Below are positions 659 through 45,262 of a DNA stretch of 53,562 nucleotides, in pieces. The notes beneath the pieces are model-generated. The model was not told where the DNA came from. It searched no databases and saw nothing but the letters and a program-made list of their open reading frames with translations. The stretch comes from a virus (lineage: Duplodnaviria; Caudoviricetes). Position numbers and translations under genes: made by a program. Each line of letters begins with the position of its first letter. Position 1 is the stretch's first letter. The stretch is from positions 1-53,562 of IMG/VR virus record IMGVR_UViG_3300010413_000045; one strand, given 5' to 3'.

Positions 659-1316
659 GAGATGCGGAGGAAGCGGAAAATATTTTCAGGAAAATCCTGA
701 TTGTTCCAATTGCCCATCTAAAGATGAATGTGATGATTTTGGAAAACAATTTTGTACTGTTCCATCAGACTGCCCAAACTGTCTCGACACAGGCACCAAG
801 CCAGAACCGGGACAGGATGAGAGGATCAGGGATGATTTTGAAGAAGTAAATCCAGACGTTATATTGAATGAACATGACAAAGAATATTACAGCATTGAGG
901 TGCGGGCTTCGTTTGAGCATTTCAAAGCCGGCTACACCTCCCGCAATGCCGAAATCGAAGCGAAAGATAGGACAATAACTGATCTACAGAAACTCAGTTC
1001 AGAGCATGTTAGTTATCTTTCTGAGTTGTCGAAAAAAGAAACCGAAATCGAAGCCCTGAAAGCAGAGATTAAATCAATGCGCGATTTTCTAGAGCTTGTT
1101 GAAAGATGGAAAGATGCCTACCCAGAAGATGTTTTTCCTCCAATTGGAAAAGATCCATATTTTATGATGTGCAAAGTTGCAGGATTTTCTGTTGATAGGG
1201 TTTCGGCTCACGTCTTAAGGGGGATTGTTAAGAATTATTCAGATCAAGCATCAATATTTCTAAATAAATCACAGACTCAACCCCGCAATAATCCCCCCAA
1301 TAAATCCAATAACTAA
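645..1316 (+). CDS. Hypothetical protein with DnaJ-like Zn finger (CERCGGSG...CPNCLDTG) and coiled coil
   Basis: CxxCxGxG motifs; heptad region; start reassigned from 597. Confidence 0.7.
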   Translation: MMKCERCGGSGKYFQENPDCSNCPSKDECDDFGKQFCTVPSDCPNCLDTGTKPEPGQDERIRDDFEEVNPDVILNEHDKEYYSIEVRASFEHFKAGYTSRNAEIEAKDRTITDLQKLSSEHVSYLSELSKKETEIEALKAEIKSMRDFLELVERWKDAYPEDVFPPIGKDPYFMMCKVAGFSVDRVSAHVLRGIVKNYSDQASIFLNKSQTQPRNNPPNKSNN

Positions 1317-1748
1317 TCCTGAAGCGGTCCCGATAATGGCCGCTTTTTTCCATCTATTCAGCTTGATCAATATACGATTGTATTCTTCCTCTAATTTCTG
1401 ATACTGATCCGATATCGTCTGAAAGTCCGTTTGCAGTTTCTGAAAGTCCTGATTCAATCCCTGATAATCCAGATTCAATGACTGAAAGTCCTGATTCAAA
1501 GATTGATAGTCTGTTCTCCATTTCTGTATATCGATTTTCAAGGTCTGAATATTTACTTTCAAGCTCTCTATTTCGCTCGATTGCGCTGTCAAGCTCTGCT
1601 GTTTTAGACTCAAGCTGATCTCCAAGTTCGCCAACTTCTGATCTAAGCTTTTCAGCTCGTCTACCAGGACCAATACTTCCTGCGAAAAAGAAGACAGCAC
1701 ACAGAACAATAAGAACAACAATGTAAATAATCGTTTTTTTATCCACAT
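1269..1748 (-). CDS. Spanin-like protein A: signal peptide, long coiled coil, C-terminal Gly-rich TM
   Basis: MWIKKRLFTLLFLLFCVLSSFSQE N-terminus; heptads; AAIIGTASGLVIGFIGGIIAG; last gene of lysis cassette. Confidence 0.7.
   Translation of the reverse strand: MWIKKRLFTLLFLLFCVLSSFSQEVLVLVDELKSLDQKLANLEISLSLKQQSLTAQSSEIESLKVNIQTLKIDIQKWRTDYQSLNQDFQSLNLDYQGLNQDFQKLQTDFQTISDQYQKLEEEYNRILIKLNRWKKAAIIGTASGLVIGFIGGIIAGLSL
1354..1746 (-). CDS. Spanin-like protein B (i-spanin topology), fully nested in protein A in another frame
   Basis: MDKK + hydrophobic TM, then continuous coiled coil; GTG start 2 nt from ATG of A. Confidence 0.65.
   Translation of the reverse strand: MDKKTIIYIVVLIVLCAVFFFAGSIGPGRRAEKLRSEVGELGDQLESKTAELDSAIERNRELESKYSDLENRYTEMENRLSIFESGLSVIESGLSGIESGLSETANGLSDDIGSVSEIRGRIQSYIDQAE
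1420..1511 (-). repeat. Imperfect 21-bp tandem repeat (one heptad per unit in both frames)
   Basis: Units tgaaagtcctgattcaatccc / tgataatccagattcaatgac / tgaaagtcctgattcaaagat. Confidence 0.85.
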
Positions 1749-17737: not shown

Positions 17738-19282
17738 TTAGACAGCTGCCCATGAAATCCAGTCGGGGGTGACTTCGGCGCGGCAGATCACATAAGCGTC
17801 CGCAAGGTTTGGTGATTTTGTCCCTTTCGGCTTTTTATCTATCATGAGTTTTCCGGATTTACTGGTCGTGTATTGAGGCTGTGATAATTCAAGTAAAAGT
17901 TTTTCCATCTTCTGGCTTGTTTGCTCACATATGGAGATCAATTCACCGGCTTCATAATCTTTACCGTTCAGAAATCGGTAGGTGTTCAACATTTCATGGC
18001 GGACAGACCACCAAGCTTGAGCTTTGGCGTTTTCAAAGAAATCTTTATTGTTCGTTTCGGCGTAATCCTGATCAGCAGGACGGACAACAGCACCGCCAGA
18101 ATTCCACGGTACAATACGCATTTTTCTGACAGGGTGATTTTCCGGTAAATCTCCGCCCTCTGATGGCATTCTCAAAATCTCTTTTAATCGGACAGCAACA
18201 GCAGCACCAACACCAATCGGGTCATAACGAAACTCTTTACAGCCCATCTCGTGAGCTTTCCAGAAATATTTATCCGTAGCGTCTCCAGGATCTCCCTCTC
18301 CTGATTCATCAGCATAGATAAACTGATTCCCGTCAATAACACAGAATCCATGAGTGTCCCCGCCCTCGTTTGCCGGGTCAAGTGCCGCTATTCTGGCGCC
18401 GTTGATGATATTATCATTCCGTTTAATCGACGATACCCATTCAGGAGGACAGCAGACAGATTCAAGAGAAGCGGCAGCGTTACGCTCAACTTCCTGCATG
18501 AAGATATGGAGCGTTCCTTCTGCTTCGGCTTTGGCTCGTTCAGCGTCGTACCACTCCTGATTGTACATAGGGATTTCCCACCAGTCGAATACGTAGACCG
18601 GATTAACCCCGCTTGTCGTTTTCCTGTAAAAAAGTGTACTAGTCCCGTGATGAGTTGATCCCCAGATCTTACAATCGGCGTTCCGTGATACGGCAGCTTC
18701 AATAGAATCAGCTCGGGGATAAAAAGCGCACTCATCTAGGAAATAAATTGAAGAACGGCCGCCACGCCCTGGAGAGTCCCCGGACTTACCGACGATAATA
18801 GAGCCATTGCGATGATTTTTAACCTGCATCAGCTTATCATCAACGCCCTCAGTGAATAATTTCGGGAGGTGAGCGCAGATAAAAATACATTTTTCAAGTA
18901 ATGTGTCGATATTTCCTTTCTCGTGGCATTCGTCAGCTTTGTACGTGTACATGGAGATCGTGACAGATTCGTGAAACAGGAACAGGAACACAGAAAAAGC
19001 CGCATTCATCCAAGACATTCCAACTCCACGGCATTTATCTACTACACCATCTTCCCGATTGGTATACCGATCCCATAGCCACCGGATATACTCTTCCTGT
19101 TTATCGAAAAGCTCGAAAGGGATAACACGGTCATCAGTCCGGCGCGGGTCCATCGTAAAGCACCAGCGATTGATAAAATCGATAGCCGCTTCTGCCGTAG
19201 GAATATGGTAGGCTTCGTAATATTTTTGTATTTCAGATGGCGAATTGATTAAGTGGGCGCGTTCTGACCAGGGGTGTTTCAT
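17738..19282 (-). CDS. terL: Terminase large subunit
   Basis: DKCRGVGMSW Walker A variant, GRGGR, FLDECAF, LDPANEGGD, SPNLADA. Confidence 0.92.
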   Translation of the reverse strand: MKHPWSERAHLINSPSEIQKYYEAYHIPTAEAAIDFINRWCFTMDPRRTDDRVIPFELFDKQEEYIRWLWDRYTNREDGVVDKCRGVGMSWMNAAFSVFLFLFHESVTISMYTYKADECHEKGNIDTLLEKCIFICAHLPKLFTEGVDDKLMQVKNHRNGSIIVGKSGDSPGRGGRSSIYFLDECAFYPRADSIEAAVSRNADCKIWGSTHHGTSTLFYRKTTSGVNPVYVFDWWEIPMYNQEWYDAERAKAEAEGTLHIFMQEVERNAAASLESVCCPPEWVSSIKRNDNIINGARIAALDPANEGGDTHGFCVIDGNQFIYADESGEGDPGDATDKYFWKAHEMGCKEFRYDPIGVGAAVAVRLKEILRMPSEGGDLPENHPVRKMRIVPWNSGGAVVRPADQDYAETNNKDFFENAKAQAWWSVRHEMLNTYRFLNGKDYEAGELISICEQTSQKMEKLLLELSQPQYTTSKSGKLMIDKKPKGTKSPNLADAYVICRAEVTPDWISWAAV

Positions 19283-20373
19283 TTTATCCCTTTAAAAATA
19301 TGACAAATAACGTCTACCGTCCATCCGTCACCGAGGCAAGAATAAATCTGGTTATCTGAAATATCAGCACCTTCAAAAAAATCATCAGGCACTGTTTGAA
19401 GCCTACAGCATTCTATTGGTGTTAACTTCCTTACTCTCATTAAGTCTAGATCGTAAGCTATTGATTGTCTGTCTACCGTATTAAGAGTGTACGACTTGTC
19501 CGGGTCAACCTTCATCCCCATTCCGTTTTGATTTTTGTTTATGAATTGGTCAGAGATTAGATAATATGCCTTGTTGCCAGACTCAACGAGCGTTGCAGCT
19601 TTTCCCTCTATCCCGTATACACGGTTAGTGCTTTGATCTTTTTCGTTTAAATTGAACAGCTTTCCTGATATAAAAGTCCCATTCCATGACTCACTATATC
19701 TTTCCTGCAAAGCCCTGGCCTTTTCTGGGTTTAAATTACAAAACTTTTCATTCTCAAGAATACGCTTTTTTACATATTCCCATGCTTTATCTTTCAGGTA
19801 GTATTTTTCATCAACTTCACTTTCGGGCTGTAAAACATCTTTCAGTAAAATACCTTTATCTTCTGGTTGCTGTATTTCATTTCCAAAAAGATCATCTCCC
19901 AATCCGGGTATGTTTGTCCAATAAATCCGCTTTCTATTCTGAGCAGAAACGAGAGCTGAATTGATTTTTACAGGAAGAACACCAAGACGCCTGGAAATCT
20001 CAATCTCACACTGTTTATCCATTGGTACATTTTCAAGCAAAAATAAAACATCAGGATTCTTTTCCTGCAATTCTTCTAATATTCGGAAATAATCCATTAT
20101 CAATCCTGAACGAGGATCGTCAAAATTAAGACGGTCTCCCATTATAGAAAAACCTTGGCAAGGACTGCCACCTATAAGCATATCAATATCGTAATCATGT
20201 CCGCAAACTTCTGTTACAGATCCGATGTGGATATTGTCTGGATAATAATTTTTACTGGCTTTTATTTTTGATTCGGATATTTCCGAAGCATAGTATTTAT
20301 CAACTTTGATTCCTGATCTCTCAAGAGCTAATCTACCACACGACATACCGTCAAATAAGCTTAATACTTTCAT
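19279..20373 (-). CDS. DNA cytosine-C5 methyltransferase
   Basis: LSLFDG, GGSPCQG, LLENV, QNRKRIYW, LTPIECCRLQ, GDGW. Confidence 0.95.
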   Translation of the reverse strand: MKVLSLFDGMSCGRLALERSGIKVDKYYASEISESKIKASKNYYPDNIHIGSVTEVCGHDYDIDMLIGGSPCQGFSIMGDRLNFDDPRSGLIMDYFRILEELQEKNPDVLFLLENVPMDKQCEIEISRRLGVLPVKINSALVSAQNRKRIYWTNIPGLGDDLFGNEIQQPEDKGILLKDVLQPESEVDEKYYLKDKAWEYVKKRILENEKFCNLNPEKARALQERYSESWNGTFISGKLFNLNEKDQSTNRVYGIEGKAATLVESGNKAYYLISDQFINKNQNGMGMKVDPDKSYTLNTVDRQSIAYDLDLMRVRKLTPIECCRLQTVPDDFFEGADISDNQIYSCLGDGWTVDVICHIFKGIK

Positions 20374-20455
20374 AGACAAGTCCTTAGTCCTGTAAAATAA
20401 TCTGGATTGGGAGAGAAGGACTAAAACTCTCCCCAGGGTGGCCGCCCTGCCAGAT
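20374..20455 (-). ncRNA. Structured leader RNA, copy 1 (three-way junction plus anti-RBS loop)
   Basis: ATCTGG/CCAGAT; CAGGG/CCCTG; GGGAGAG/CTCTCCC; loop TAGTCCT vs AGGACTA-AGGACTT; promoter CTGACA-N17-TATTAT at 20461-20489. Confidence 0.8.
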
Positions 20456-20469
20456 ATTGAATAATATCA

Positions 20470-21120
20470 TCAATCGCCGTTATTGTCAGCACCGGAAATC
20501 TTATCAAAGAAAAGTTTCTTCGCTTCTTCGGGAGGGAGATCGGTGTAGTTGATAGTTTTATTTTCGGTTTCCAGTTTGCCCTTAACGGTAATTTCCTGCT
20601 TATCAGTCCACAGTCCACCATGACGGCCCAAAAGCTCAAGGGCGGACTTTTTATCATGAAACTTGATTTCAATAGCTCCCTTTGCGTCCTGCTTAATGCT
20701 GGCAATTCCCCGCCGCTGTTCCGTAGTGAGATTTTTTGTATCGGCAATTTCGACAATCTGCCGAGTTTTGGTTACGGTATCGATTATGTTCCCGTCAATG
20801 TCACGGATGTTCTCTTCATACTCTTCAGTTCTGACATTCACAATATCGGTAATATCGCTTGTGGCTATCGGTATAAGCTCGGAAAGTACTTTATGCCGTA
20901 TTTGAGACTTCATTGCGCCGAGAGACTTGTCCACACATTCGTCTAAATATCTGACCACCTTGTCATTTTTAAGCATACGAGAGGCGGTTGTAGCTGCTGA
21001 TTTCGGACTGTATCCGGCAGCTATGGCGGCATTCGTTTGGTTCCAATCCAGCTCTATGAGTTTATGGCAAAAAGCCTGTTGTTTCGGTGTCAGTGATTCC
21101 ATATTGCTTTTCTTTGGCAT
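20470..21120 (-). CDS. terS: Terminase small subunit
   Basis: LTPKQQAFC...NQTNAAIAAGYSPKSA...; KKSALELLGRH. Confidence 0.92.
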   Translation of the reverse strand: MPKKSNMESLTPKQQAFCHKLIELDWNQTNAAIAAGYSPKSAATTASRMLKNDKVVRYLDECVDKSLGAMKSQIRHKVLSELIPIATSDITDIVNVRTEEYEENIRDIDGNIIDTVTKTRQIVEIADTKNLTTEQRRGIASIKQDAKGAIEIKFHDKKSALELLGRHGGLWTDKQEITVKGKLETENKTINYTDLPPEEAKKLFFDKISGADNNGD

Positions 21121-21428
21121 ATTCAATCCTCCCTATCAGGATAACGATTTGCATGGTTAATCGTCAAGGTTCTCCCCCTTATCGTACAACTCCTGATTTT
21201 TACAGACAATACAAGCTCCGGTCAAAAAGTGTTTGCATTTGTAGCAGTCTTTATCGCGCATAATCCCTCACTATCAAAATGGAGCCAATTTATCAACAGG
21301 CTCTAATCTGTAATCGTGTGATTTATCTTCAATCACGCCATAGACAACACATTTACCGGATCTTTTATGCCGGCAACCAGCTGATGATCTACATTGGTCT
21401 TTAAATCCGTTGTAGTGTGTGCATTTGC

Positions 21429-23919: not shown

Positions 23920-24113
23920 TGGTAACCCTCATACATAATCCTCCATAAAATAATAATCCTGGGATTGAACACATCACCGGATATGAAAGTCCACTGGCTA
24001 CCATCAAAGTATACAGGCAACCATGGACCGCGAATCCATCCTATTCGTACAAGATATTTACCTGGTAATTGCGGGGTTAATTTGTCCATGCGGTGGATTT
24101 TTTCGAAGTTCAT
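23916..24113 (-). CDS. Hypothetical protein
   Basis: PGKYLV...YFDGSQW; coupled to neighbours. Confidence 0.55.
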   Translation of the reverse strand: MNFEKIHRMDKLTPQLPGKYLVRIGWIRGPWLPVYFDGSQWTFISGDVFNPRIIILWRIMYEGYQ

Positions 24114-24123
24114 GGTTCAGTCC

Positions 24124-24870
24124 TTAAAAATCCAGCATATTCTGAAGACACTCTATGTCGTATCTTTCAACACCGGCTTTAAAATAATCGGGGTCTTTTT
24201 CACAGCCTAGCCACTTGAGGCCGTAATGATGACAGGCAACGGCTGTTGTAAAGCTACCAAGGAAAGGATCGAAGACTATTGCATTTTCAGGTGCGTATTT
24301 TTCTAGGCACCATTTGAAGAGTTTTAATGGTTTTTGGGTTGGGTGGAACTTTGTCTCTGAATTGGATCCACCTGTGTTTGAAAGCCTATAAATAGATGCC
24401 GGTTTATCAAAAGAAGTATAAGCAAGCTCAACCTGAGAAAAGTTTTCCCACGGCTGACACTTATCCCAAACAGCAATACCCCTTGTTGGAGGTAAATTGA
24501 AATAATTATATCCCCAAATTATTTGATTCTTTGATATTCTAAATATTTGATCGAACACTTCTTTTGATGGTGCTATATCCCAAGAACAATCCGAATTATT
24601 CAAAACTCTATCTTTAAGTTTACCGGATCCGGAATTAAGCCGGTTCTTTTTTGCTTTTACTGCGGTTGATGTTCCTGGATATTGACCTTTTCCTTTTCTG
24701 TTTGGCGCGGATCCCATTTGCATGTTGTCGGCACCTATCCCATAAGGCGGATCGGTCAAAACAAGATCAATACACTTATCCGGCAACTCACGCATGAAAT
24801 CAAGACAATCTCCTTCATAAGCTGTATTTAAAGGCCACACCTTACCCGATTTCAATATTATACTTTCCAT
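24124..24870 (-). CDS. DNA N6-adenine/N4-cytosine methyltransferase (beta class)
   Basis: GDCL, LTDPPYG, HPTQKP, DPFLGSFTT. Confidence 0.93.
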   Translation of the reverse strand: MESIILKSGKVWPLNTAYEGDCLDFMRELPDKCIDLVLTDPPYGIGADNMQMGSAPNRKGKGQYPGTSTAVKAKKNRLNSGSGKLKDRVLNNSDCSWDIAPSKEVFDQIFRISKNQIIWGYNYFNLPPTRGIAVWDKCQPWENFSQVELAYTSFDKPASIYRLSNTGGSNSETKFHPTQKPLKLFKWCLEKYAPENAIVFDPFLGSFTTAVACHHYGLKWLGCEKDPDYFKAGVERYDIECLQNMLDF

Positions 24871-24896
24871 ATCTACCTCGCTTAAAAATATACTTC

Positions 24897-29107: not shown

Positions 29108-30673
29108 ATGCCACTCCGTCCACACCAACAACGCTTTTCAGAAATATGCCAACAAATTAACGACGGTGCCAAAATTACAGATGTTATAGCATTCGTCGTT
29201 CCAGGTGGAGGAAAATCAACTTATTGCCCGATAGCCTCACAGCTTATTCATGATGATTATACAAAAATATTATGGGTATGCCCGCGAGAATCTCTTATGA
29301 AGCAAGCCGAACAGGGATTCAGAGGAGACGGGATAGTCGATGTCGGAAACCATGATATAAGGCTGGCGAATAATTCGGGAGACGATCCTTTCCGAGGATG
29401 TTCCGGCGCTGTCACATCCTATCAGGGAATTGTCGCACGCCCTGAATATTGGATAAAAATATCTAAGAAATATAAAATTATCCTTTTTCTCGACGAGTAC
29501 GATTCTTTGATCGAAGAAGGGGCATGGTCCGAACCAATAAAGCAGATTTACGGAAACGCTTTTTTTAGGGTATGCGCTACAGGTACAATCGACCGATCTG
29601 ACGAACTGCCTTTACTGTTTACTCCGTACAACGATGACGGATCAATCGATTTCAGAGATACGGAATCAAGAAAGTGGATCATCTACGGCAAAGAGGAATC
29701 AATCCGTGATGGTTCAACAGTACATTTTACAGCCACTCTGATATCAGGATCTGGGAAATATGTCGATCTTGACGGTATAACGAGAAGTTTTAAAAAGTTT
29801 ACCGGGAAAGGTGATGAACTGATTACAGCTTTCCGCACCGACTTTGCCTATCAAATGTTTTTGCTATGCCTGAAAGACTGGAACGAATACAGAAAAGATC
29901 ACCCATGGGCGAAAATAATCATACTGGCAAACAATATTGACATAGCTGAAAAATATAACAGATGGTTCAAAGAAAACGGTTATGATTTTGACATAGCCAC
30001 ATCGGGAGATGAAAAGCTATCAGCTGAAACTATCAGACGTTTTAAAATGCCTAACGGTTATTTCGGAGCGTTAGACGGGATGGTTGGCATCGGCAAGGTA
30101 TATAAGGGCCTTGATATAAAACCGGCCACATTCCTTGTTTTTCTCACTCGCATCCGTGGTAAATCCTGGGTTGATCAGGCGGTCGGAAGGGTTCAGCGGG
30201 CATTCAAAGGAAAGACTGAGGCTTTTGTTTATGCTCCAGATGATCCAAAAATGAGGAAAGTATTACAGGAAATATCAGATTGTGTTATCCGTAACGCCAC
30301 AGCCGACCCACCAGAGAAAAAAGGAACCTACACATCAGATGAAGAAGCCGGACCGGCACGAACTATCCAGGCTTTATACTCAAAAGCAAATATAGACATT
30401 CCTCAACCCGACCTACCGCTAATTACCGAACATCATGAAACTCAGTCCGAGATCGAGAAGAGGCTTAGAGTAGAAATAAATCACACAATATCTAGGATAA
30501 TATCAAAAGAAGATCAAGGTAACATCAAAACAAAACAAAGAATTATATTTATGAGAATAAGACAAATTGTGAATAATGGAAGAGACGAAAATGGCAAACT
30601 TATTAAAAAATCATTTGATGAGATGTCTATAAAAGAGCTTAAAGCTGTTAAGTTATTTGTTGAAATGTTTTAA
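29108..30673 (+). CDS. Superfamily 2 helicase
   Basis: LRPHQ, PGGGKS, LDEYD, TGT, GLDI, QAVGRVQR. Confidence 0.88.
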   Translation: MPLRPHQQRFSEICQQINDGAKITDVIAFVVPGGGKSTYCPIASQLIHDDYTKILWVCPRESLMKQAEQGFRGDGIVDVGNHDIRLANNSGDDPFRGCSGAVTSYQGIVARPEYWIKISKKYKIILFLDEYDSLIEEGAWSEPIKQIYGNAFFRVCATGTIDRSDELPLLFTPYNDDGSIDFRDTESRKWIIYGKEESIRDGSTVHFTATLISGSGKYVDLDGITRSFKKFTGKGDELITAFRTDFAYQMFLLCLKDWNEYRKDHPWAKIIILANNIDIAEKYNRWFKENGYDFDIATSGDEKLSAETIRRFKMPNGYFGALDGMVGIGKVYKGLDIKPATFLVFLTRIRGKSWVDQAVGRVQRAFKGKTEAFVYAPDDPKMRKVLQEISDCVIRNATADPPEKKGTYTSDEEAGPARTIQALYSKANIDIPQPDLPLITEHHETQSEIEKRLRVEINHTISRIISKEDQGNIKTKQRIIFMRIRQIVNNGRDENGKLIKKSFDEMSIKELKAVKLFVEMF

Positions 30674-30688
30674 TAAAAAATATATAAT
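30660..30688 (+). promoter_or_regulatory. Promoter for leader RNA and HNH gene
   Basis: TTGAAA-N17-TATAAT, 6 nt before P1. Confidence 0.7.
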
Positions 30689-30694
30689 TTATAT

Positions 30695-30774
30695 ATCAGG
30701 CGGTAGGCATACCGGGGGGAGTTCAACACCTTCTCCCCCAAACCTGATTATTTTACAGGTGTTAGGTGTTGTCT
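30695..30774 (+). ncRNA. Structured leader RNA, copy 2
   Basis: ATCAGG/CCTGAT; CGGTA/TACCG; GGGGGAG/CTCCCCC; loop AACACCT vs AGGTGTT-AGGTGTT. Confidence 0.8.
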
Positions 30775-31551
30775 ATGTCAAATAAAATCTGTTCAGTTGA
30801 TGGTTGTTTTTCTAAAGTTTTATGCAAAGGTTTTTGTGTCAAACACTACCAGAGGAACAAAAGGCACGGAGATCCACTTTATTATGAATACAAATCAACA
30901 TGTTCTATTGATGGTTGTAATAATAAGCATGTTGCTTTTGGATATTGCATGAAACATTATTCAAGGTATAGAAATAATGGAGATGCTAAAATATCTTTAA
31001 TAAACAAAGACCATGATGAATTATGTTCTGTCAATGGATGCAGTAATAAGTATTTCTCTAAAGGTTTATGCAAGAAACATTATGAAAGGTTTAAAAAATA
31101 TGGAGATGTAAATTATACAAAGTTAGGAAGAGATCTTGAATGTCATGGAATGACTAGCTCTCCAGAATATGTATCGTGGAGAGAAATGAAGAATAGATGT
31201 ATAAACAAGAAGTCAAATAGGTATTATAGATATGGTGGCAGAGGGATAAAGGTTTGTGATAGGTGGTTAGAGTCGTTTGCAAATTTCTATGAAGATATGG
31301 GTCCAAAGCCTTTTCCTAAAGCTCAAATAGACAGGATAGACAATGATGGAAACTACGAACCTAGGAATTGCAGATGGATAAGCTTGCTTGAAAATATGCG
31401 TCATACATCTAGAGTAAAGTTGTCTATTGAGAAAGCTAGGAGAATAAGAAGTCTATGTAATAGCGTTTCTACTAAGGATTTAGCTAAAATGTATGGAGTT
31501 TCTGAATCTTTGATATCAAAAGTAATAAAAAACGAAATATGGATAGAGTGA
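30775..31551 (+). CDS. HNH homing-type endonuclease with three CSxxGC-CxxHY repeats and C-terminal HTH
   Basis: YGGRGIKVCDRW, IDRIDNDGNYEPRNCRW. Confidence 0.9.
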   Translation: MSNKICSVDGCFSKVLCKGFCVKHYQRNKRHGDPLYYEYKSTCSIDGCNNKHVAFGYCMKHYSRYRNNGDAKISLINKDHDELCSVNGCSNKYFSKGLCKKHYERFKKYGDVNYTKLGRDLECHGMTSSPEYVSWREMKNRCINKKSNRYYRYGGRGIKVCDRWLESFANFYEDMGPKPFPKAQIDRIDNDGNYEPRNCRWISLLENMRHTSRVKLSIEKARRIRSLCNSVSTKDLAKMYGVSESLISKVIKNEIWIE

Positions 31552-31614: not shown

Positions 31615-31765
31615 GGCAAGGTGGCGAAATTGGTAGACGCCGTTGACACCTTTAACGAAAATGCTGGGGATATGAGCCATCCGCCTGAACCGAGTGGTGT
31701 AGGTCACATAAAGTGGGTAATGCTGATCCTTAACCGGCTTGTAGGTTCGAGTCCTGCCCTTGCCA
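31615..31765 (+). ncRNA. tRNA-Leu-like RNA (151 nt) with degenerate anticodon arm and giant variable arm
   Basis: GGCAAGG/CCTTGCC-A; GCG-AAATTGGTAGA-CGC; GTAGG-TTCGAGT-CCTGC. Confidence 0.8.
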
Positions 31766-43895: not shown

Positions 43896-45262
43896 TACCA
43901 TTTCCCCACAAAATAAACTGTTGCGTTTGCAGTTTGTCCCGTCAGAGATGTATATAATATTACATTGTATCCGGCTGCTGCACTCACTCCGAGCCTGGCC
44001 GATATTGCAGACACCAAAACCCCTGTCAAATAATCCGGTGCCGATGTAAACGGAACAGAAAACGAATTTATAGCAGTATATGTATAAGTTGTTCCAGAAC
44101 TGGAGCCAAAAATATTAGATGCGGAAGCAGATGAAACACCTGAAAGTGAGCAAATTATTTCCATGTCGCCATTCGAGCTCTGTATTATTCTCTGTTCTAC
44201 ATCTTGGTAATCGGCTGTTACAGCATCGGATACAAGCCATATATTATTATCTTCACTCCATTCAAGTTCAATAATTTTTCCATCAGATATCGGCACCCCG
44301 GTGGAAGATCCACCATCCCATATCCCAGATTTCCTTCCACCTGTTAATGATCCGCTGCCTCGTAAATAAGCAAGATTGGCCCCAGAACAGAAAAGTTTTT
44401 CTTTCTGCCCCTCTTTTGCCCCATCTGATAGCGTGACTGTGACATCTGCTGATGCGGTGTTTATTTTTATGATATGATCATCAACTCCAACATCGAATGA
44501 CCCTGTTGCCGATATAGTTGATTCGACAGGATAAACATACCTCGCGTTTAGGTATGTCGCGGATGTTATCCCATCGGGAAGTGTTGGGGTGTTGTCTAGG
44601 TAGGGTGTAACGAGAGACAATCCAGCACTACTACCAGAAGCCACCGCGGCTAGATTTCTAATACCTGATAATAATTTACCTGAATTGGGATCCATATAAA
44701 GCTGAACTTTAATTCCTGCATTGATAACGTTTGAATATGCAAGACGAATAGAACCTAATGGGACTCCTACAGAGTTTTCTATCGATAATAATTCACAAGA
44801 TGGATTATCAATGCTTGTATCAGCGCAAAACCCAATATGAGCTTTCAGTCTACCCACTCTTGCTGAGCCTCTAAATACAAAAGATAAATCAGAATCTATA
44901 ACTTCATAACTTACAGCTGTACTTTCTGCTACAGTATACCACCCGATATCTGTCCCTAATGTAGATGCCTTCTCCTGTATCGTAATGCGCCCGGAAGTGA
45001 GGGATAATGTTCTATCAATAGGGTCAATTATATCCTCAAGAGCGTCTATATCGCTTGCGTTTTGTGATATATCAGAAGTATTTGTACCTATCTGTACAAT
45101 TTCAGAGAATCCAAGAATCCACGACTTTACAACGCTTGCTAACACGCCTTTTAATCGCCTTGTTCCGGTTTCGTATGTTGGTTTAAGGGCTGCAAACTCA
45201 GTAGAATCTGTTATTTCTGGAGTCGGTTCTAAATTATCCCATTGTACTTCGCCTTTAGCCAT
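43895..45262 (-). CDS. Tail fibre/spike protein 2
   Basis: Short coiled coil, beta domains; C-terminus paralogous to fibre 1. Confidence 0.75.
   Translation of the reverse strand: MAKGEVQWDNLEPTPEITDSTEFAALKPTYETGTRRLKGVLASVVKSWILGFSEIVQIGTNTSDISQNASDIDALEDIIDPIDRTLSLTSGRITIQEKASTLGTDIGWYTVAESTAVSYEVIDSDLSFVFRGSARVGRLKAHIGFCADTSIDNPSCELLSIENSVGVPLGSIRLAYSNVINAGIKVQLYMDPNSGKLLSGIRNLAAVASGSSAGLSLVTPYLDNTPTLPDGITSATYLNARYVYPVESTISATGSFDVGVDDHIIKINTASADVTVTLSDGAKEGQKEKLFCSGANLAYLRGSGSLTGGRKSGIWDGGSSTGVPISDGKIIELEWSEDNNIWLVSDAVTADYQDVEQRIIQSSNGDMEIICSLSGVSSASASNIFGSSSGTTYTYTAINSFSVPFTSAPDYLTGVLVSAISARLGVSAAAGYNVILYTSLTGQTANATVYFVGKW

Follow-up and report, generated by a model that had tools for sequence, protein, structure and literature searches.

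A covarying three-way-junction leader motif on mobile gene cassettes of an uncultured phage

The virus record IMGVR_UViG_3300010413_000045 (Duplodnaviria; Caudoviricetes), analysed here over its whole length and referred to as the window, is a complete record of 53,562 bp carrying direct terminal repeats. Within it, two copies of one leader element, on opposite strands, stand immediately 5' of two unrelated cargo genes, a C5 cytosine DNA methylase gene and a gene for a free-standing HNH endonuclease. This leader is a real RNA motif, absent from curated families, which shows strong covariation and is linked to mobile gene cassettes. A preliminary description, drawn up without database searches, had set out the sequences, helices and tandem 7-mers of the two copies, and all of these were recovered exactly when both strands were read again.

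Architecture and covariation of the leader

In both window copies a 6-bp helix, P1, encloses a 5-bp hairpin, P2, and a 7-bp hairpin, P3, the latter with an 11-nt loop. On the 3' side of this three-way junction there follow an 8-nt linker, two tandem 7-mers starting with AGG (T1 upstream, T2 downstream), four bases and the ATG. The parts of the two cassettes, together with the genes that flank them, are arranged as follows (MFE, minimum free energy fold; promoter matches are to the consensus).

20461-20489, minus strand: sigma-70-like promoter of cassette 1, CTGACA, 17 bp, TATTAT, with TG before the -10 (10/12 matches)
20371-20455, minus strand: whole element, copy 1, including the ATG
20400-20455, minus strand: three-way-junction core, copy 1 (MFE -24.3 kcal/mol, z -2.37)
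20455-20450 with 20405-20400, minus strand: P1 of copy 1, 6 bp
20449-20445 with 20438-20434, minus strand: P2 of copy 1, 5 bp
20433-20427 with 20415-20409, minus strand: P3 of copy 1, 7 bp
20426-20416, minus strand: P3 loop of copy 1, 11 nt
20399-20392, minus strand: linker of copy 1, A/U-rich and single-stranded
20391-20385, minus strand: T1 of copy 1, the upstream 7-mer, 7/7 complementary to the P3 loop
20384-20378, minus strand: T2 of copy 1, a Shine-Dalgarno-like 7-mer, 6/7 complementary to the P3 loop
20373-20371, minus strand: ATG of cargo 1, with the AGGA of T2 7 nt upstream
19279-20373, minus strand: cargo 1, C5 cytosine DNA methylase (PF00145, E 1e-36), between the small and large terminase genes
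30660-30688, plus strand: sigma-70-like promoter of cassette 2, TTGAAA, 17 bp, TATAAT (11/12 matches)
30695-30777, plus strand: whole element, copy 2, including the ATG
30695-30748, plus strand: three-way-junction core, copy 2 (MFE -25.3 kcal/mol, z -3.59)
30722-30732, plus strand: P3 loop of copy 2
30749-30756, plus strand: linker of copy 2, single-stranded
30757-30763, plus strand: T1 of copy 2, 7/7 complementary to the P3 loop
30764-30770, plus strand: T2 of copy 2, Shine-Dalgarno-like, 7/7 complementary to the P3 loop, the next G forming an eighth pair
30775-30777, plus strand: ATG of cargo 2
30775-31551, plus strand: cargo 2, free-standing HNH endonuclease (phrog_3377, E 2e-41)
20470-21126, minus strand: small terminase gene (PF03592)
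17738-19282, minus strand: large terminase gene (phrog_2)
29108-30673, plus strand: helicase gene, upstream of copy 2

Pattern scans, together with a search around homologues of the HNH gene, yielded two further distinct versions in other uncultured phages, L034 and L131, both 5' of HNH genes and with the covariation kept. There are thus four distinct elements to compare. First of all, each of the four has a sigma-70-like promoter that ends 5-6 nt before P1, its hexamers 17 bp apart and matching the consensus at 10-11 of 12 positions, so that the -10 box first noticed before the window copies holds throughout. The -35 hexamer lies within the last codons of the upstream gene in each element, those of the small terminase gene in cassette 1 and those of the helicase gene in cassette 2. 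Upstream of P1 conservation is limited to the two promoter hexamers, a pattern more in keeping with function than with common descent of this segment. The probable transcription start is the first base of P1 or one beside it.

An antisense promoter-like site (TAGACA, 17 bp, AATAAT; 10/12 matches) lies inside both window copies, at 20373-20401 on the plus strand and at 30747-30775 on the minus strand, and overlaps the start codon and the linker in each. It was rejected as a shared feature: none was called at the corresponding place in L034, where the sequence is not promoter-like by eye.

Second, every one of the four cores takes the three-way junction as its MFE fold (energies of -24.1 to -26.7 kcal/mol, z-scores of -2.4 to -3.7), and so do three of the four full leaders. 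The helices had been noted to differ in sequence yet to keep pairing, and the four-sequence alignment bears this out, with 71/71 stem cells in standard pairs and both-sided, compensatory changes in 10 of the 18 pairs. None of 500 shuffles reached these values, and when the partners were moved by 1-3 columns only 38-56% of the cells paired, with at most two pairs changed on both sides. Because the alignment comprises four rows and was model-fitted to the structure, these figures lean towards the structure. P2 contains two G-U pairs (L034, L131) that fit the sense strand only. The strands joining the helices are almost nil (0, 0 and 3-4 nt), and conservation among the unpaired bases is sparse. 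The linker is neither A/U-rich nor U-rich in L034. Within the window, a search for the linker 14-mer that allowed up to 3 mismatches gave 15 matches, of which only those at the two copies are exact; three other matches with up to 2 mismatches, at 44022, 24176 and 9522, were set aside, lying in coding sequence with no such structure. A covariance model built from copy 1 alone recovers copy 2 (E 3e-15), and the four-sequence model finds no further copy in the window at E<=1.

Third, the P3 loop is complementary to the tandem 7-mers, and the preliminary observation that loop and 7-mers change together extends to the two further phages. Over the four sequences, the loop pairs at 28/28 positions with T1 and at 26/28 with T2, the mismatches falling in two of the four elements. 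Columns 1-3 of the loop-target alignment (AGG with CCU) are invariant and the other four of the seven, columns 4-7, all covary; T2 covaries with the loop as well, at columns 4-6, in all four elements. The 3' end of the loop is always CCUU, accompanied by four variable bases. Of the 24 ways to permute loops over targets, the true one gives the most pairs, without a tie (28/26 pairs for T1/T2 against at most 24/24), and own loop-target duplexes reach -8.3 to -15.2 kcal/mol, as compared with -2.0 to -7.9 kcal/mol for foreign ones. The two window copies are mutually orthogonal, with cross-copy duplexes of -2.0 to -3.7 kcal/mol. The preferred partner is T1 in copy 1 (-11.4 vs -8.6 kcal/mol) and in L131 (-9.3 vs -8.3), and T2 in copy 2 (T1 -9.1 vs T2 -11.5 kcal/mol) and in L034 (T1 -12.2 vs T2 -15.2). 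In L034 complementarity to the 11-nt loop extends beyond T2 over four more bases, as far as the A of the ATG, and the loop is matched along its whole length. T2 places AGGA or AGGU 7 nt upstream of the ATG and, from this spacing and its sequence, is presumably the Shine-Dalgarno sequence of the ribosome-binding site.

Distribution and mobility of the cassettes

The element family is small. Among the best 80 of 581 loci of HNH relatives the element occurs in three, which amount to two distinct sequences. One version, found in L131 and L036, stands ahead of an HNH gene 41-50% identical to that of the window; the other, found in L034 and also in L035, L144 and L160, belongs to G002, a complete 58-kb phage with two HNH paralogues, only one of which is preceded by the element. 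Across the four distinct elements the cargo is a phrog_3377 HNH gene in three and a C5 methylase gene in one. The methylase has no relative in viral contigs apart from the fragment of the same phage; L004 is a fragment of the window's own phage. Scans of viral contigs with five patterns returned 1/25, 1/3, 2/26, 4/32 and 3/7 element-bearing loci out of all loci matched; every element-bearing locus came from contigs of the four known sequences, and the rest were chance matches. Pattern scans of metagenomes and of genomes gave one and two loci, respectively, all chance, but absence there means little because the pattern was too strict in requiring a linker of the copy-1/2 type. When both copies were compared with named phages by BLAST, the matches were confined to methylase motif I and to A/T-rich promoter sequence, and the large terminase is at most 36% identical to those of the nearest named phages.

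Two weak matches were not counted as members. One, at 8814-8882 of L115 (also in L134) in a high-GC phage, lies 5' of a portal gene and consists of one hairpin, its loop reading CUCCUU, with the same ATTTTACAGG linker and a AGGAAGGAGG run; it matches covariance model R2 weakly (22.6 bits, E 0.004). The other, in L155, is a weak model match with E 0.02.

The preliminary description had proposed a portable promoter and three-way-junction cassette on unrelated cargo genes, and mobility is now backed by both empty and replaced sites. L131 comes from a relative of the window phage (large terminase 52%, portal 59% amino-acid identity), and carries the HNH cassette at a different locus, with the portal gene on one side and the large terminase side on the other, instead of 3' of the helicase; the only DNA stretch shared with the window phage is 61 bp around the 3' part of the element and the start of the gene. 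G002 carries the HNH cassette and has no detectable homologue of the window large terminase. Among seven records of large terminase relatives, including the near-complete G005 and G007 (large terminase 67-72% identical to that of the window), the covariance model finds no copy of the element. G005 has a 270-bp gap 3' of the helicase, without an HNH gene. In another relative, L175, the large terminase gene directly follows the upstream gene and the terminase junction is empty, and in L177 the gap between the small and large terminase genes is filled by a different nuclease gene, with an AP2-like C-terminal region by eye. This nuclease has a 175-nt leader (L177 3138-3311) with its own Shine-Dalgarno sequence inside a long stem (MFE fold -45.5 kcal/mol, z -2.6), and in the predicted fold the leader appears to follow the same logic with a different RNA. 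The small-to-large terminase gap looks like an insertion hot spot.

Metagenome contigs add to this. In one contig of run X6 just 10 letters separate 30642 from 31550, so that promoter, leader and HNH gene are removed together. Contig 23 of the same run passes from the large terminase gene, up to 19283, into ~1.17 kb of dissimilar sequence and then into 20368-21170; leader and small terminase gene are kept, and the cargo is other than the methylase. In run X4 the reading frame diverges from the window methylase after shared first codons. Runs X3, X4 and X6 have one extra base between T1 and T2, likewise present in L131. Because these contigs were matched at 80% likeness and low depth (parts without contig cover were not used), their joints serve as supporting evidence only. 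Relatives without the element, a contig across the missing HNH cassette and a leader with other cargo together lead us to conclude that promoter, leader and gene behave as a mobile unit. In the window itself, the stop codon of the methylase gene overlaps the start of the large terminase gene (ATGA, 19279-19282), which makes it likely that the inserted cargo is translationally coupled to this essential packaging gene.

Other variable features were seen in the window. A 248-aa open reading frame at 24124-24870 is missing from contigs of runs X2 and X3, which pass from 24113 to 24885 through 16 other letters; it may be another variable accessory gene (its C-terminus resembles a DNA methylase by eye). 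Directly 3' of the HNH cassette lies a tRNA-like gene, 31615-31765 on the plus strand, which matches the Rfam tRNA model with 32.9 bits in a local search, has an 82-nt insertion in the anticodon region and was missed by ARAGORN. Contigs of runs X2, X3 and X4 skip 108 nt of it (31634 to 31743). Its anticodon-like stem loop equals, by eye, the last 7 bases of the copy 2 P3 loop, which may be chance. A similar tRNA-like sequence lies in the post-helicase gap of G005 (L182 ~1230-1345, minus strand), with recognisable acceptor, D and T arms and a long middle part; it was not called by ARAGORN.

Possible mechanisms

We favour, while giving it slightly less than an even chance, a reading in which the leader of a mobile expression cassette tunes translation in cis by mutually exclusive pseudoknots. 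The element would be the transcribed 5' leader of a self-contained cassette made up of its own sigma-70 promoter, the leader and one selfish or accessory gene. Given the probable start of transcription at the edge of P1, the mRNA would begin with a stable three-way junction of 54-57 nt. The P3 loop would then act as an anti-Shine-Dalgarno mimic, able to pair with either of the adjacent AGG-starting 7-mers. When T1, a decoy too far from the ATG for ribosome binding, is paired, T2 would be free; when T2 is paired, the Shine-Dalgarno sequence would be masked and, in one relative, part of the start codon as well. The balance of the two exclusive pseudoknots could thus set a fixed, context-independent level of translation for a gene that may land anywhere in phage genomes. 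Both the formation of the pseudoknots and the direction of their effect on translation are predictions. This reading accommodates a loop that resembles an anti-Shine-Dalgarno sequence, the placing of T2, a T1 free of mismatches, a T2 that has kept its complementarity, and the hiding of ribosome-binding sites documented for phage homing endonuclease genes (PMC2988022).

Several points weigh against cis tuning. A plain hairpin would suffice to mask a ribosome-binding site, which leaves the conservation of P1 and P2 unexplained. For copy 2 an alternative fold in which P1 and P2 are disrupted is predicted to be more stable (-32 kcal/mol). Just four distinct sequences exist, and their stem alignment was fitted to the model. 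Because the preference for T1 or T2 differs among members, a single on/off logic does not fit all of them. The contig joints rest on metagenome contigs of 80% likeness and low depth, and both the transcription start and the existence of a leader RNA are deduced from sequence.

The main rival, which we regard as unlikely, is a processed antisense RNA like those of P1 C4 and P4 CI, which arise by cleavage from the leaders of their own operons and base-pair with repeated targets. Here the junction would be cut in the A/U-rich linker to give a stable RNA of ~55-60 nt that binds T1 and T2 of new transcripts in trans, thus providing cassette-specific negative feedback. In its favour are the compactness and stability of the junction, the pairing of its 5' end, the conserved single-stranded A/U-rich linker that comes next and the two tandem targets of each loop. 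The orthogonality of the two cassettes in one genome mildly favours it, because orthogonality matters only if the RNA can act in trans. On the other hand, the L034 linker departs from the A/U-rich type, the processing is hypothetical, and no Rfam family matches at E<=10, the C4 models included. Nor do further targets stand out in the window: the 7- and 8-mers occur at roughly chance numbers, and the others inspected are coding sequence or ordinary ribosome-binding sites.

A long-shot extension of trans action is that the junction is released as a stable small RNA whose four variable loop bases serve as an address code, giving feedback on its own tandem targets and silencing incoming cassettes of the same address at co-infection. 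If so, the address-code small RNA would be an immunity or incompatibility system among homing-endonuclease cassettes, each cassette with an orthogonal riboregulator, and the pair of decoy and ribosome-binding site would let the address evolve stepwise without loss of control.

It is quite unlikely that the leader is simply a positive 5' module, in which the junction would keep RNases off the 5' end and make the ribosome-binding site independent of the surroundings of the insertion, with the loop constitutively paired to T1 so that T2 is single-stranded and translation high. The perfect match of T1 in all four elements (28/28), as against a T2 mismatch in two, would suit such a module, as would the pairing of the likely 5' end by P1 and the varied contexts in which the cassettes are found. 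It does not, however, predict the covariation of T2 with the loop at columns 4-6 in all four elements, nor T2 being the better partner in copy 2 and L034.

Highly improbable, in our view, is an operator, in which the junction is bound by a phage or host factor, a small ligand or the cargo protein itself and one pseudoknot is thereby stabilised. P1 and P2 are conserved though unneeded for simple masking, and ribosomal protein S15 leaders do combine junctions or pseudoknots with the ribosome-binding site. Yet junction strands are nearly absent and conserved unpaired bases scarce, the two cargo proteins are unrelated, and no leader or riboswitch model of Rfam matches. Finally, a DNA-level element, such as a recombination or homing site or a single-stranded DNA hairpin marking the 5' end of the cassette with complementarity as a by-product, has hardly any claim: it would suit a position at the 5' boundary of a mobile unit, and a tandem 7-bp repeat can recall a target-site footprint, but the promoter register is conserved in all four elements, the P2 G-U pairs fit the sense strand only, cassette homology begins at the promoter hexamers and not at an inverted repeat, and a footprint leaves the covariation of repeat and loop unexplained.

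Were cis tuning correct, the leader would be a natural translation controller of ~85 nt, programmable through its sequence and carried along by selfish phage genes: a single fold would serve at least four distinct loop/target addresses, with a decoy built in. Among the known ways in which phages restrain homing endonucleases, pseudoknot plus decoy would be an additional design. Promoter-leader modules would be shown to be exchangeable between unrelated cargo genes, and synthetic biology would gain orthogonal parts ready for use.

Relation to known systems

No Rfam 15 family matches at the gathering threshold over the window or at E<=10 over both 191-nt regions, C4 models included, which answers the check put forward in the preliminary description; the only matches at E<=10 are chance ones of miRNA or snoRNA type (E>1). 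Models of known riboswitches, ribozymes and ribosomal protein leaders in Rfam 15 do not match either, and no description of this leader motif was found in the literature searched. CsrA sites, an intrinsic terminator and hammerhead or pistol ribozymes were dropped as candidates, since GGA, U-tract and core motifs are not conserved and Rfam gives no match.

The C4 RNAs of P1 and P7 and the CI RNA of P4 are, like the present leader, structured RNAs encoded in a leader and controlling their own transcript, with loops complementary to repeated downstream targets at ribosome-binding sites and with loop and target covarying among relatives. C4 is processed by RNase P from its leader and acts in trans on the immunity (icd-ant) operon. 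The four elements share the loop-target trait, each loop being complementary to the tandem 7-mers at its own ribosome-binding site (T1 28/28, T2 26/28). In contrast to C4 and CI, the element matches no Rfam model in sequence or structure, uses one loop and two tandem copies of one target instead of two loops with two targets or distant repeats, and precedes a methylase or HNH gene instead of an immunity operon. Engineered cis-repressed and toehold riboregulators also place a programmable anti-RBS (ribosome-binding site) in a 5' hairpin and give orthogonal, sequence-addressable control. The present leader, on the other hand, has no known trans activator, is natural, places the anti-RBS in a loop and has a tandem decoy built in.

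PeSL of T4-type phages likewise combines a strong sigma-70-like promoter with a stem-loop, in a short module that is repeated beside variable non-essential genes and is implicated in modular gene shuffling (PMC2839356). Its stem-loop lies within or upstream of the promoter, or between the -10 and the transcription start, and acts as a terminator, and the text available describes it without the loop-target complementarity and the three-way junction seen here (PMC2839356). In our elements the structure lies downstream of the -10, in the predicted transcribed leader, and no terminator-like site is called at the element in the window.

The closest relation is to the homing endonuclease genes of T4-type phages, the translation of which is limited by RNA structures that hide the ribosome-binding site (PMC2988022, in the text available). 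I-TevI, I-TevII, I-TevIII, segB and mobE likewise have a leader structure complementary to their own ribosome-binding site, and these structures are likewise presumed to limit translation of a selfish nuclease; according to the same text, the Shine-Dalgarno sequence is held in a hairpin stem on read-through transcripts only, while an internal late promoter gives structure-free transcripts (PMC2988022). Three of the four distinct elements stand 5' of a homing endonuclease gene as well. As compared with what that text describes, the promoter here is upstream of the entire structure, the Shine-Dalgarno sequence pairs with a hairpin loop in a predicted pseudoknot, and a second tandem target, a three-way junction and a methylase cargo are added. 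Indeed, T2 is not buried in a stem but unpaired or weakly paired in the MFE folds of three of the four leaders, and the sole well-matched sense promoter lies upstream of P1 in all four, in a scan that covered promoters other than phage-specific late ones. We rate the element as a new variant among the RBS-masking leaders of selfish phage genes.
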